DNA from: Escherichia phage A5-4
Strand: one strand, 5' to 3'
Length of the DNA stretch: 64,000 nt
Sequence record: OP744025
Shown here: positions 12,585 through 23,960 of the stretch, one piece after another
How positions within the stretch are numbered: position 1 is the first letter of the stretch
Layout: every line of letters starts with the position of its first letter
The notes under the pieces: model-generated
The model's database searches: none
What the model saw: only the letters and a program-made list of their open reading frames with translations
What the model was told of the DNA's origin: nothing
Made by a program: the position numbers and the translations under genes

Positions 12585-12646
12585 TAGCCAAAACATTAAC
12601 GGGGCAACTTTGCCCTCATTAAATAACATTATCCAGGAGTATTAAC

Positions 12647-12805
12647 ATGACTAGCCAAAACACTAACATTGAAAAAATCAACATTACTAAAGAGCGTAAA
12701 GCATGGAATGAAACATTAAATCTCAAAGGTAAGAAGCTGAATAAAACTAAACGCGATCGCAGTACAAAGCGGGCCTTTTGTGAATTTACAGCGGATCAAG
12801 AGTGA
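12647..12805 (+). CDS. small hypothetical protein (52 aa)
   Basis: not in track; hairpin GGGCAACTTTGCCC and GGAG upstream. Confidence 0.35.
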   Translation: MTSQNTNIEKINITKERKAWNETLNLKGKKLNKTKRDRSTKRAFCEFTADQE

Positions 12806-13101
12806 TGATTAAAGTTATTGCACTTACTGCTTTATTGTGTATACCATTTTTGGCGCACGGTACTAAGTTTTACGGTGCTAACTTGATAGATTGTAAAGCT
12901 CATATGCTGGACCATGAAACAGGCAACAAATTTCTTAAGCCTTTCCAGATCAATCCGGCGGCATTTAGTGACGGTGTTTTGTATCAGGAAGGTAAAGCCA
13001 GTACGCTGATAATGCATTACGATCCGGCAACAAAGAAAGGTAGTCTATCAATCCAGGTTGGAGAGGTGGAAGAGTTTTCCGGTGAAATAGTCTGTAATTA
13101 A
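12805..13101 (+). CDS. secreted/periplasmic small protein
   Basis: N-terminal signal peptide MIKVIALTALLCIPFLAHG; track ORF starts at GTG 12802. Confidence 0.5.
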   Translation: MIKVIALTALLCIPFLAHGTKFYGANLIDCKAHMLDHETGNKFLKPFQINPAAFSDGVLYQEGKASTLIMHYDPATKKGSLSIQVGEVEEFSGEIVCN

Positions 13102-13163
13102 TATCTTGAGGCCCGTCATTGTACGGGCCTTTTTCTTTTATGAAAATAATTTTGAAAATGTTG

Positions 13164-13231
13164 TTGACAGTAAAATCGATTCTGTTAAGATGTATCACAT
13201 CAGGACGGGGAACGAAGTAAACACTCCCCGT
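13164..13231 (+). promoter_or_regulatory. promoter + 5' stem-loop cassette without downstream ORF
   Basis: TTGACA, 16 nt, TAAGAT, GTATCACAT, hairpin ACGGGGA-13nt-TCCCCGT; next promoter starts about 60 nt later. Confidence 0.5.
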
Positions 13232-13289
13232 TAAGTAGTCCAGGAGTAAGACATACGAAAAACTCCCCTGATAAAAAGATTTAAAAGTG

Positions 13290-13346
13290 GTTGACACAAA
13301 ATTAAAAACTGTTAAGATGTATCACATACGGCGGCAATAGTGCCGC
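13290..13346 (+). promoter_or_regulatory. promoter + 5' stem-loop cassette
   Basis: TTGACA, 16 nt, TAAGAT, GTATCACAT, hairpin GGCGGCA-ATAG-TGCCGCC. Confidence 0.6.
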
Positions 13347-13367
13347 CTCCAACAAAGAGAAATTATC

Positions 13368-13619
13368 ATGGCTAACAAAACTAAAACCACTAAAACTTAT
13401 AACGGTCACAAAAACAAAAATCATTGGAACGTTTCTCTATGGCTTAACAATGATTCATCACTTTACCAGCTGGCGAAAGAATTTATTAACGCTAACACTA
13501 ATCGTAATGATGCGGCGCGGGATATGATGATTTTTCTGGAACAAACTGGACAATATAAAACTCCAGACGGTTTCAAGTACAGCACTACGGCGATCCGTGC
13601 TGCAATGGTTGGAATGTAA
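13368..13619 (+). CDS. hypothetical small early protein, paralog family A
   Basis: paralog of 15186-15425 (shared HWNVSLW and C-terminal TPDGFKYSTTAIRAAMVGM); cassette upstream. Confidence 0.6.
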   Translation: MANKTKTTKTYNGHKNKNHWNVSLWLNNDSSLYQLAKEFINANTNRNDAARDMMIFLEQTGQYKTPDGFKYSTTAIRAAMVGM

Positions 13620-13675
13620 TATTCAATACTGTAACAATGGCGGGATTAGTTCCCGCCTTTGCGGAGAAATATCTA

Positions 13676-13963
13676 ATGAGCAAAGTAATTGACTGTAAAG
13701 TGTTAACCAAATCATTGTCAATCAGTGAGTGCACCAATGGTTATTGGCTTTATGATGAAACACGCGGCATGAATCTGGCTATGGAAGCTAAAACGGCTGA
13801 GGCGGCGTATGTGCAAGCCCTGGAATACTACCAGAGACGTTTAAAGGAAGTAGAAAACAATTATCAGAATCTCAAAGAGAAAGTAGATCATTTCGTTGGT
13901 CAATTCGTTGACGATGACGAGGAAGACGGGCACTACTGCAACCGCTGCGGATCTTACAGTTAA
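13676..13963 (+). CDS. hypothetical small early protein
   Basis: track ORF starts at 13637 inside hairpin; ATG 13676 after GGAG preferred. Confidence 0.5.
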   Translation: MSKVIDCKVLTKSLSISECTNGYWLYDETRGMNLAMEAKTAEAAYVQALEYYQRRLKEVENNYQNLKEKVDHFVGQFVDDDEEDGHYCNRCGSYS

Positions 13964-13967
13964 GTAC

Positions 13968-14026
13968 TTGCAATTAGTTTTAAGTACTGTATAATGTTTT
14001 ACATCGAGAGCGGGAATAGTTCCCGC
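13968..14026 (+). promoter_or_regulatory. promoter + 5' stem-loop cassette
   Basis: TTGCAA, 16 nt, TATAAT, hairpin GCGGGAA-TAG-TTCCCGC. Confidence 0.6.
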
Positions 14027-14049: not shown

Positions 14050-14277
14050 ATGGCTATCCTTATTGTTCGTGTATCCGGTACAGTTGGTAACTCCCAGGTT
14101 GTAGCAGTTGTAACAAGCAAAAAGATTAATGAATCTTCTAAAATCTTGAACGAATGGGCCGTTGCTAACTTTGGTCAATGGTCGAGCGTCGAGTATCTCG
14201 AATCTTACCAGGTGCCAACTATTAGCCTAACCGATCTCAATGTTGATCGCCTGTTATGCCTGGATGAATTGATTTAA
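14050..14277 (+). CDS. hypothetical small early protein
   Basis: cassette 13968-14026 upstream; ORF track. Confidence 0.55.
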   Translation: MAILIVRVSGTVGNSQVVAVVTSKKINESSKILNEWAVANFGQWSSVEYLESYQVPTISLTDLNVDRLLCLDELI

Positions 14278-15185: not shown

Positions 15186-15425
15186 ATGGCTAAATCTAAA
15201 ACTTTCAACGATCACAAAAACAAAACTCATTGGAATGTTTCCTTGTGGATTAATAATGGTGAAGCACTGTATCGGCTTGCTCAAAATTGCATTGCACAAA
15301 GTAAAACTAAAGATATTGCTGCGGAATGTATGTACCGCAGATTAAAAGCGAACGGCACTACAACAACGCCGGACGGATTTAAGTATAGCACCACTGCGAT
15401 CCGTGCCGCGATGGTTGGAATGTAA
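15186..15425 (+). CDS. hypothetical small early protein, paralog family A
   Basis: paralog of 13368-13619; promoter 15114-15142. Confidence 0.6.
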   Translation: MAKSKTFNDHKNKTHWNVSLWINNGEALYRLAQNCIAQSKTKDIAAECMYRRLKANGTTTTPDGFKYSTTAIRAAMVGM

Positions 15426-16896: not shown

Positions 16897-16903
16897 CAAT
16901 CAA

Positions 16904-16930
16904 GGCCCGCTATGATGTGGGCCTTTCTTT
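16904..16930 (+). terminator. rho-independent terminator
   Basis: GGCCC-GCTATGATGT-GGGCC followed by TTTCTTT. Confidence 0.6.
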
Positions 16931-21483: not shown

Positions 21484-21538
21484 TTGACAAGCTGAATCAA
21501 CCTGACAAGATGTATCACATAGGGGCGATAAACGCCCC
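21484..21538 (+). promoter_or_regulatory. promoter + 5' stem-loop cassette
   Basis: TTGACA ... CAAGAT GTATCACAT, hairpin GGGGCG-ATAAA-CGCCCC. Confidence 0.55.
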
Positions 21539-23407: not shown

Positions 23408-23418
23408 GTTCGACAAAA

Positions 23419-23444
23419 GGGCTTGACTTGTTCAGCCCTTTTTT
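23419..23444 (+). terminator. rho-independent terminator
   Basis: GGGCTTGACTTGTTCAGCCC followed by TTTTTT. Confidence 0.7.
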
Positions 23445-23584
23445 GCTATTCTTATCAAACGGGCGGCACCTGGGAACAGGGGGGAGGTAATCACTGGACG
23501 ACTCCGCTATATAGTGATAGTAAATAGCTATCAATAATCTCCAAAAATAAAATAAAACCTATCGAGTCTTTACAATTCTTTCTA

Positions 23585-23613
23585 TTGACACAACAACCGC
23601 ATTACAGTATTAT
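23585..23613 (+). promoter_or_regulatory. strong sigma70-like promoter with no ORF downstream
   Basis: TTGACA, 17 nt, TATTAT, then ATCTCGTAGGGCAGCG start region; no ORF of 60 aa or more for about 350 nt. Confidence 0.55.
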
Positions 23614-23886
23614 TTATCTCGTAGGGCAGCGAAGCAGTGATGTAAAGTAGTTACTCTATGATGTAAGTTCTGAGAAGTCGAATCCGATAAAGTATCAGAA
23701 AGTTTCTAAGTTTTCGAATCGTCCAGATGAAAAAGGCTGGCAAGTGTTGAGAAAGGGCACGTTGAGTAAGTCCTGAACAGGGGCGCTCCTAGACACCTTC
23801 TACTGAGATTGCGATCGAAGTGTTAAACTGTGAGAAACGATAAAGAGTACCAGGAAAGAAAGAAGTAAAAGAAGTGAAAAAGATTG
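23614..23886 (+). ncRNA. candidate non-coding transcript (promoter-driven, ORF-free)
   Basis: lies between terminator 23419-23444/promoter 23585 and next promoter 23887; only stop-rich frames; no structure or homology evidence. Confidence 0.25.
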
Positions 23887-23916
23887 TTGACACGAAGGTA
23901 AGTTTTGTACTATTAT
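23887..23916 (+). promoter_or_regulatory. sigma70-like early promoter
   Basis: TTGACA, 18 nt, TATTAT, ATCTTGTAGGGCA. Confidence 0.5.
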
Positions 23917-23960
23917 CTATCTTGTAGGGCAAACTTCAAGAACATTAAAAAGGGTACAAA

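Follow-up and report, generated by a model that had tools for sequence, protein, structure and literature searches.

The window, that is, the whole 64,000-nt stretch of Escherichia phage A5-4 DNA analyzed here (OP744025), comes from a phage of the Vequintavirinae, and its positions 12600 to 13700 are 99.7% identical to Escherichia phage A7_1. Between approximately 11.7 and 24 kb, it carries a plus-strand array of small genes of unknown function, each usually preceded by its own near-consensus sigma-70 promoter, a (C/T)ACAT start region, a G/C-rich hairpin in the 5' untranslated region (5'-UTR), a Shine-Dalgarno sequence, and an ATG. The part of the array addressed in this study harbors two near-consensus sigma-70 promoters, P1 and P2, spaced 127 bp apart, and is organized as follows.

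12802-13101, plus strand: 99-aa gene with a GTG start, in the unit upstream of P1
13108-13140, plus strand: intrinsic terminator closing the upstream unit, GAGGCCCGTCATTGTACGGGCCTT followed by a T-run (terminator scan)
13141-13163, plus strand: A/T-rich stretch ATGAAAATAATTTTGAAAATGTTG in the position of an UP element, kept in phages A73, W70, UPEC06, and LTH01
13164-13191, plus strand: promoter P1 with an extended -10 (TTGACA at 13164-13169, 16-nt spacer, TGn, TAAGAT at 13186-13191), followed by GTATCACAT up to 13200
13291-13318, plus strand: promoter P2 (TTGACA at 13291-13296, 16-nt spacer, TAAGAT), with TAAGATGTATCACAT at 13313-13327
13330-13347, plus strand: 5'-UTR hairpin of the second cassette, GGCGGCA-AUAG-UGCCGCC, followed by a Shine-Dalgarno sequence and the ATG at 13368
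13368-13619, plus strand: first gene served by both promoters, 83 aa, unknown function, DUF7249/phrog_871

The original prediction for this locus described two near-identical promoter-hairpin cassettes, the first of them empty, and its promoter and hairpin features were recovered within 1 nt, the second TTGACA beginning at 13291 and not at 13290. Both promoters contain the common core that it had noted, TTGACA-N16-TAAGATGTATCACAT, whose 21 specified bases are matched exactly at 13164 to 13200 and at 13291 to 13327 and in 0 of 100 shuffles. The tandem promoter arrangement, which it had offered as one option, also holds, with P1 and P2 placed in series upstream of the gene at 13368. Transcription from P1 would start at approximately 13197 to 13199; the ends and the abundance of the RNA are predictions as well, and the stretch at 13141 to 13163 would take the role of an UP element. 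The two promoters also have in common 19 nt, CTGTTAAGATGTATCACAT, over the -10 and start region (13182 to 13200 and 13309 to 13327), an identity that fits recombination between promoters; the A73 counterparts are not identical. A third promoter, at 21484 to 21520, has one mismatch to the specified bases of the same core, and the likeness of the three suggests homogenization (gene conversion) among promoters of the window lineage.

Downstream of P1, approximately 90 nt are devoid of an ORF. The absence of a start codon between the cassettes was confirmed, with no ATG in positions 13232 to 13290, and no plus-strand ORF of at least 25 aa starts between P1 and 13368; two listed ORFs, at 13106 and 13119, begin upstream of P1 and read through it. 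Among approximately 25 strong plus-strand promoters between 11.6 and 24 kb, only P1 and the promoter at 23585 lack a Shine-Dalgarno sequence and start codon within approximately 100 nt, and the promoter without an ORF is therefore a true exception rather than a chance occurrence. P2 leads into a hairpin of ordinary layout, which is repeated at approximately 15 other promoters between 13 and 23 kb. The cassette hairpins lie 3' of the inferred start site, have no U-tracts, and were not called by the terminator scan, which in 10.5 to 24 kb reported only two strong plus-strand terminators, at 13108 to 13140 and 16902 to 16925. The flanking proteins matched only families of unknown function (PHROGs and Pfam). 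The DUF7249/phrog_871 gene at 13368 to 13619 (MANKTKTT...HWNVSLW) has a paralogue at 15186 to 15425 (MAKSKTF...HWNVSLW), 1.8 kb apart. The second promoter region without an ORF spans 23408 to 23960 and comprises a terminator (23411 to 23445), a promoter (TTGACA-17-TATTAT, 23585 to 23613), and approximately 270 nt without a ribosome-binding site or start codon before the next promoter at 23887. Within it, 86 nt (23714 to 23801) match, at 85 to 92% identity, unannotated DNA close to the genome termini of the unrelated Rtp-like siphoviruses Rtp, WildeMaa, SLUR75, and ZL19, and the predicted fold of this segment was not better than that of shuffles.

Next, we analyzed the transcribed stretch between P1 and P2, in which the following parts were recognized.

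13197-13276, plus strand: leader RNA element without an ORF, approximately 78 nt, in the form termed type 1 (sequence conservation and folding)
13205-13231, plus strand: hairpin 1, ACGGGGA/UCCCCGU with a 13-nt loop
13233-13266, plus strand: core motif, made of AAGUAGUC at 13233-13240, the stem GGAG (13243-13246)/CUCC (13263-13266), and the 16-nt loop UAAGACAUACGAAAAA at 13247-13262

Hairpin 1 is the 7-bp stem already described for the first cassette (ACGGGGA at 13205 to 13211 and TCCCCGT at 13225 to 13231). A terminal stem, AUCAGG (13199 to 13204) with CCUGAU (13267 to 13272), encloses hairpin 1 and the core motif and is followed by an A-run at 13273 to 13277. The predicted minimum free energy of the type 1 element is -21.6 kcal/mol (z = -2.1), and the copy in phage EmilieFrey reaches z = -3.6. 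The 36-nt core has a simple plan, in which a AAGUAGNC linker and a gap of 1 to 3 nt are followed by a stem of 4 to 5 bp closing a 16- to 17-nt loop, UAAGNCNNANGAAAAN. The core is separated from P1 by 41 nt, inside the distance of approximately 100 nt taken to define the motif, and from the -35 hexamer of P2 by 29 nt, P2 beginning 19 to 29 nt past the core motif. We propose that GUAGUC (13235 to 13240) pairs with GAC-A-UAC (13250 to 13256); this pairing between linker and loop probably gives rise to an H-type pseudoknot with an A-rich third loop, GAAAA(N). The order of parts, namely, promoter, ACAUCAGG, G-rich hairpin, and GGAG, is that of an ordinary cassette 5'-UTR, from which the element therefore probably evolved.

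The close relatives of the window phage differ at this junction. In A73 and W70, P1 and the stretch without an ORF are kept at 93% identity up to 13276; past this point, a promoter leads directly into a homologue of the window gene at 14050, and homology resumes at the promoter at 13968. The window thus carries two extra genes (13277 to approximately 13966), bounded by promoter -35 regions. In UPEC06 and LTH01, which diverge at 13171 and 13223, the promoter is kept and followed by another stretch of approximately 70 nt without an ORF and then by a different gene. As seen, the first promoter still leads into an ORF-less transcript in every relative. The cassette idea of the original prediction thus stands in part: the junction is a site of cassette gain and loss in A73, W70, UPEC06, and LTH01, but the first cassette is not empty. 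The ordinary 5'-UTR hairpins also vary among these phages, and the orthologous hairpins of the window (14004 to 14022, GCGGGAAUAGUUCCCGC) and A73 (L002 2724-2742, GGGGAGAAUAGUUCUCCCC) differ by compensatory changes, so that the ordinary cassette hairpins are selected for structure, unlike the sequence-conserved element.

The public annotations of this region are not uniform. The GenBank record of A7_1 (L001 1801-2199 for this locus) places a minus-strand coding sequence, A71_225, across the RNA element and the terminator and omits the plus-strand 99-aa gene (12802 to 13101 of the window), which is annotated in A73, W70, and UPEC06; the UPEC06 record has a 37-aa coding sequence reading through promoter 1. 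Both A71_225 and the 37-aa coding sequence look like misannotations. The minus-strand ORF (12965 to 13297, A7_1) overlaps the plus-strand 99-aa gene and crosses the conserved RNA and was taken as spurious.

Conservation extends beyond these relatives. A sensitive BLAST search with positions 13100 to 13300 found 13190 to 13276 at 86 to 92% identity in approximately 40 Asteriusvirus jumbo phages (PBECO4, 121Q, G17, and others), with 2 to 4 unannotated copies each, and at 85 to 87% identity in the Justusliebigvirus phages EmilieFrey, outra, and muut. In the jumbo phages, 2 to 3 copies lie near the genome end or inside the terminal repeat. A homologue of the DUF7249/phrog_871 gene is also present downstream of the Justusliebigvirus copies. 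Type 1 copies have a uniform layout, in which a sigma-70 promoter is followed by the element and at once by another promoter, in at least six gene contexts and three phage taxa. Alignment of these copies gave a mean column identity of 92%, with the P1 spacer and hairpin-1 loop scrambled and of varying length and with the hexamers, the stems, and the 3' half nearly invariant. Justusliebigvirus copies have ACA in place of the ATA downstream of the Shine-Dalgarno-like GGAG. The hairpin-1 stem is retained while its loop varies, and in copy B of 121Q, a C-to-U change creates a G.U pair, which preserves hairpin 1 only in sense-strand RNA. The invariant stems and 3' half, the lack of an ORF, and this G.U pair form the pattern of a selected RNA rather than of a decaying scar.

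We also observed a shorter form, type 2, in UPEC06, LTH01, and the jumbo phages EJP2, Turkey5, and PBECO4. It keeps the linker AAGUAG(N)C and the 16-nt loop UAAG(N)C(NN)A(N)GAAAA(N), and its closing stem stands in the same place with another sequence, ACUUG/CAAGU, CCUG/CAGG, or CCAG/CUGG versus GGAG/CUCC. Jumbo phages carry the short form as the 5'-UTR belonging to a protein of 160 to 200 aa, phrog_27871 (EJP2, L023 603-701; Turkey5, L024 603-713; PBECO4, L152 300-399). The C terminus of this protein resembles H-NS by eye; Pfam gave no confirmation, and the identity was not retained. A strict type 1 pattern scan of IMG/VR returned only 121Q, and one metagenome scan returned only further jumbo-phage copies. 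Scanning IMG/VR with the linker-plus-loop pattern led to genomes of the T7 group, one locus being Yersinia phage phiA1122.

In the T7 record, the start sites of the early promoters A1, A2, and A3 are at 498, 626, and 750. A hairpin, CCGGGGUCAACCGG, occupies 537 to 550, and the core, AAGUAGACAGCCUGAUAAGUCGCACGAAAAACAGG, occupies 552 to 586, corresponding to +55 to +89 of the A1 transcript and lying directly before A2, whose -35 hexamer is at 590 to 595. The arrangement of the window (promoter, noncoding stretch, promoter) is that of the T7 early promoter cluster, and the two noncoding stretches are considered homologous. The A1-A2 interval of the Studiervirinae, and also of the Melnykvirinae, resembles the window in having a hairpin, the AAGUAGNC linker, and a stem that closes the loop UAAGNCNNANGAAAAN, in the same order and on the sense strand between two promoters. 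It differs from the window in that the T7-group copies lie approximately 55 nt into the transcript behind another hairpin and have no terminal closing stem; their loop is one base longer, and the A2 -35 hexamer is 7 nt away, versus 19 to 29 nt in the window form. At the hairpin-1 position, the T7 group has at least 10 different complementary stems, e.g., CCGG/CCGG, UCCAG/CUGGA, GCCAC/GUGGU, and CGGG/CCCG. The T7 spacer between A2 and A3 (626 to 750) looks like a degenerate duplicate of the A1-A2 interval, with CUUAAGCGCAC...CAUAAGGUGAAACAAAAC and then TTGACAACATGAAGTAA, in which stem complementarity is lost. T7 also has a boxA sequence, CGCUCUUUAACAA, downstream of A3 (812 to 824).

No other piece of the early control region of the T7 group is retained as widely as the motif, which matches 519 phage records. 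A covariance model built from 27 distinct cores returned 64 loci at 44 to 65 bits, T7 scoring 61.7 bits, and sequences outside its training set (T7, Kayfunavirus, a Melnykvirinae phage of Kosakonia, and an Aeromonas phage) scored 51 to 62 bits. In the 64-kb window, the model found a single copy, 13231 to 13269, at 54 bits; since this copy belongs to the training set, independent support comes from the equal scores of the T7, Kayfunavirus, and Melnykvirinae copies. The motif always occurs in sense orientation and promoter proximal, a short way downstream of a strong sigma-70 promoter, with no terminator of its own. A promoter follows it in 53 of 55 distinct contexts, and type 2 copies are without a following promoter. 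Two T7-like IMG/VR contigs (L067 4113-4190 and L055 5388-5460) carry a variant with C:G at a pseudoknot pair and then a boxA-like sequence without a promoter; the boxA stands approximately 15 nt after the stem in L067 and approximately 10 nt further, one base off consensus, in L055.

To evaluate the proposed fold, covariation was scored in an alignment of 27 distinct sequences, prefiltered for at least four stem pairs, and in one of 37, fitted to a model holding that stem. The fraction of paired cells in the stem plus the proposed linker-loop helix was 94.6% and 95.1%, respectively. The covariation scores were 0.38 and 0.34, compared with 0.13 and 0.11 for shuffles, of which 0 of 500 reached the observed value, and slid registers scored at most 0.084. 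Double (compensatory) changes were present in four of the five stem pairs, and G.U pairs were confined to the sense strand. The pseudoknot pair 13239:13251, U:A in the window, is AU in 27, CG in 5, UA in 4, and otherwise in 1 of the 37 distinct sequences. Its variants occur in separate lineages, and a copy from a Hafnia phage, which was recovered by BLAST rather than by the pattern scan, carries U-A against an A-U background. Support for the pseudoknot comes mainly from this one covarying pair, and the extension pair 7:25 is unpaired in 10 of the 37 sequences. Within the type 1 group, no covariation was found, and the terminal stem is backed by one cross-type comparison and the folding prediction.

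Several known classes of element were compared with the locus. Rfam 15 gave no gathering-score match in the whole window, none on the element at E values up to 10, and none on T7 positions 480 to 930; weak matches at 13100 to 13140 correspond to the upstream terminator only. ARAGORN found 0 tRNA or tmRNA genes in the window. A small ORF was rejected, with no ATG, ATA changed to ACA in relatives, and a frame that is not conserved. No host copy or antisense target was found in 5,426 E. coli genomes apart from one 20-nt chance match, and among 185,579 bacterial genomes, one per species, six pattern matches comprised two tiny T7-like contigs and four sequences that are unrelated and lack the stem. 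No boxA was detected near the element in the window, where two matches with two mismatches are within chance expectation. A CsrA decoy, suggested by two CAGGA motifs, was dropped, as the motifs are missing from T7-group and type 2 copies. Mimicry of a strand of the 16S rRNA decoding site was also dropped; the 9-nt identity in UPEC06, AAGUCGUAA, has a chance of approximately 40% across variants by rough estimate. No description of the motif, and no function for the T7 segment, was found in the searched literature, whose reach leaves out older T7 papers.

Overall, the stretch is very likely a selected functional RNA element, homologous to the motif between A1 and A2 of T7. The original prediction had suggested, as another option, a footprint of deletion or duplication, which is contradicted by a conserved ORF-less transcript with covarying stems; it had also named a structured RNA between the cassettes in relatives as evidence to the contrary, and comparison with related genomes found such an RNA conserved in A73, W70, Justusliebigvirus, and Asteriusvirus, with the core also present in the T7 group. 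Our best explanation, held at a probability of roughly 40%, is that cassette 1 is a dedicated early host-type promoter driving a short structured noncoding leader RNA and is neither a gene nor a scar. The terminal stem would join the 5' end of this RNA to its 3' boundary, inside which lie the variable hairpin and the conserved 36-nt core. Transcription from P1 would first produce the folded RNA and then continue through P2 into the small early genes. The holders of the element are the T7 group, the rV5-like and phi92-like myoviruses, and the jumbo Asteriusvirus.

How such a leader would act can be approached in two ways, which we regard as about equally plausible. By analogy with the HK022 put RNA, which counters pausing and termination in cis through the beta' zinc-binding domain, the nascent RNA might act in cis on the very host RNA polymerase from which it emerges, a tentative idea in which this polymerase would no longer pause or terminate readily while crossing the long early array, and the -10 element of the following promoter might serve as a sigma-dependent pause, giving the RNA time to fold and bind. 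The promoter-proximal sense placement without a terminator and the promoter that follows, with constant spacing, in 53 of 55 contexts are in favor of this idea, as are the host and its sigma-70 polymerase being all that these phages have in common, the boxA approximately 15 nt after the motif in T7-like contigs, and the position of the next strong terminator after P1, only at 16902. Against it, transcripts from A2, A3, or P2 would be without the element, no boxA lies near the window element, and there is no sequence relation to HK022. In addition, since the downstream cassette hairpins have no U-tracts, there would be few terminators to bypass.

Alternatively, the RNA could possibly act in trans as a small RNA or decoy. 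An abundant RNA of approximately 80 nt, made within seconds of DNA entry and cut free in its A/U-rich tail, would neutralize a conserved enterobacterial protein or RNA, the proposed targets being a defense nuclease, an RNA-decay factor, or a ribosomal factor. The type 1 promoter without its own gene and the terminal stem, as in stable small RNAs, point in this direction, and such an RNA would be able to act before any phage protein. The approximately 25 invariant loop bases suggest that a host component common to Enterobacterales and Aeromonas recognizes the sequence specifically, but the varying pair of linker base X and loop base Y covaries inside the molecule, which argues against a free seed for target pairing, and E. 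coli showed no complementarity of at least 20 nt. With its sequence AAAAUAG/UUU or AAAAAG/AUU, the tail is compatible with the cleavage preference of RNase E, which is loose, yet there is neither a terminator nor a conserved processing signal. Jumbo-phage copies near the genome end or terminal repeat lie in the part likely to enter first; however, the type 2 form of these phages is a plain 5'-UTR of a protein gene, and in the T7 group, the terminal stem is absent and the motif abuts the A2 -35 hexamer.

A role at the DNA level, in which the stretch would be a spacer in a tandem promoter cluster, kept for an UP element/A-tract or a protein-binding site of the next promoter, is improbable. Tandem strong early promoters are a known design, 53 of 55 contexts have a next promoter with fixed spacing, and the T7-group GAAAAA falls at approximately -46 to -40, the position of the proximal UP subsite of A2. 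In type 1, however, an additional 20 nt separate the A-run from the -35 hexamer, and type 2 has no next promoter at all. Compensatory double changes in four of five stem pairs and the sense-strand G.U pairs also argue against a DNA-level role, as does the covariation of hairpin-1 stems.

A neutral footprint, i.e., an ordinary cassette that lost its ORF by recombination between cassettes and is now decaying, is very unlikely, even though the layout copies that of a normal cassette (ACAUCAGG, G-rich hairpin, GGAG, approximately 7 nt, ATA in place of ATG, and a stop-rich tail) and cassette insertions and deletions occur at exactly this junction. Useless DNA is quickly lost from phage genomes, and this stretch is conserved at 90 to 92% in three taxa and at least six gene contexts next to a promoter spacer that is scrambled; the shared copies lack identical flanks, and the core recurs in the T7 group at 44 to 65 bits with covariation. 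Finally, a very small peptide from a noncanonical start codon, for which the Shine-Dalgarno-like AGGAG, 7 nt, and ATA open a 13-codon frame in the window, has a negligible probability, given that ATA is ACA in Justusliebigvirus, the frame shrinks to 8 codons with a nonsynonymous change in A73, and other forms have CUUG, CCUG, or CCAG where GGAG would stand.

The retention of the same RNA by unrelated enterobacterial phages suggests a common host target, one that has to be dealt with before phage proteins exist. We therefore raise, with reserve, the possibility of an undescribed protein-independent RNA device, common to T7-group podoviruses, rV5-like and phi92-like myoviruses, and jumbo phages and overlooked in T7, which the first host-type promoter would produce within seconds of entry and which would either reprogram the RNA polymerase elongation complex or disarm a conserved enterobacterial factor of defense or RNA decay. 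If the leader RNA is functional, the A1-A2-A3 early promoter region of T7, among the best-studied stretches of DNA, holds an unrecognized structured RNA, and cassettes with a promoter and no gene in phage early regions need another annotation. The element is compact (36 nt) and present in T7, a phage that is easily engineered.

Among known systems, the put RNA of phage HK022 is approximately 70 nt long, has two stem-loops, lies just downstream of the early promoters, and requires no phage protein, and a sigma-dependent pause may aid its folding (PMC9378689). The leader element resembles it in its promoter-proximal place, its size of approximately 70 nt, its two stem-loops, and its presence in more than one copy per genome, as for putL and putR; it differs in having another fold and no sequence similarity. 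A search of the whole HK022 genome with the covariance model, which asks whether HK022 holds the motif and is not a put model, gave at best 9 bits (E of approximately 1).

A phage related to rV5 uses an RNA decoy against ToxN (PMC3475682). In this regard, the core has a weak likeness, seen by eye, to ToxI-like type III antitoxins, being a small pseudoknotted RNA of approximately 36 nt with an A-rich segment; unlike these, it is single copy in 64 kb, with no tandem array, no adjacent toxin gene, and no Rfam match to ToxI.

The closest parallel for the cassettes themselves is with the PeSL cassettes of T4-type phages, which undergo modular shuffling with breakpoints in promoters and whose stem-loop is a terminator, usually placed over the -35 and -10 hexamers or in the space separating them (PMC2839356, PMC4122927). 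The window shares with them sigma-70 promoters with A/T-rich upstream DNA, G/C-rich stem-loops before small orphan genes, and insertion or deletion of whole cassettes at promoters, so that both the early promoter and the indel breakpoints were found as in PeSL. By placement and terminator scan, no stem-loop lies within or overlaps a promoter: the window stem-loops are in the 5'-UTR, without a U-tract, and the phage is not T4 type. Cassette 2 has a Shine-Dalgarno sequence and start codon, and cassette 1, without a start codon, carries an RNA payload in place of an ORF, which would mean that orphan genes are not the only cargo that PeSL-like shuffling moves between phage families and that RNA payloads travel in the same way.
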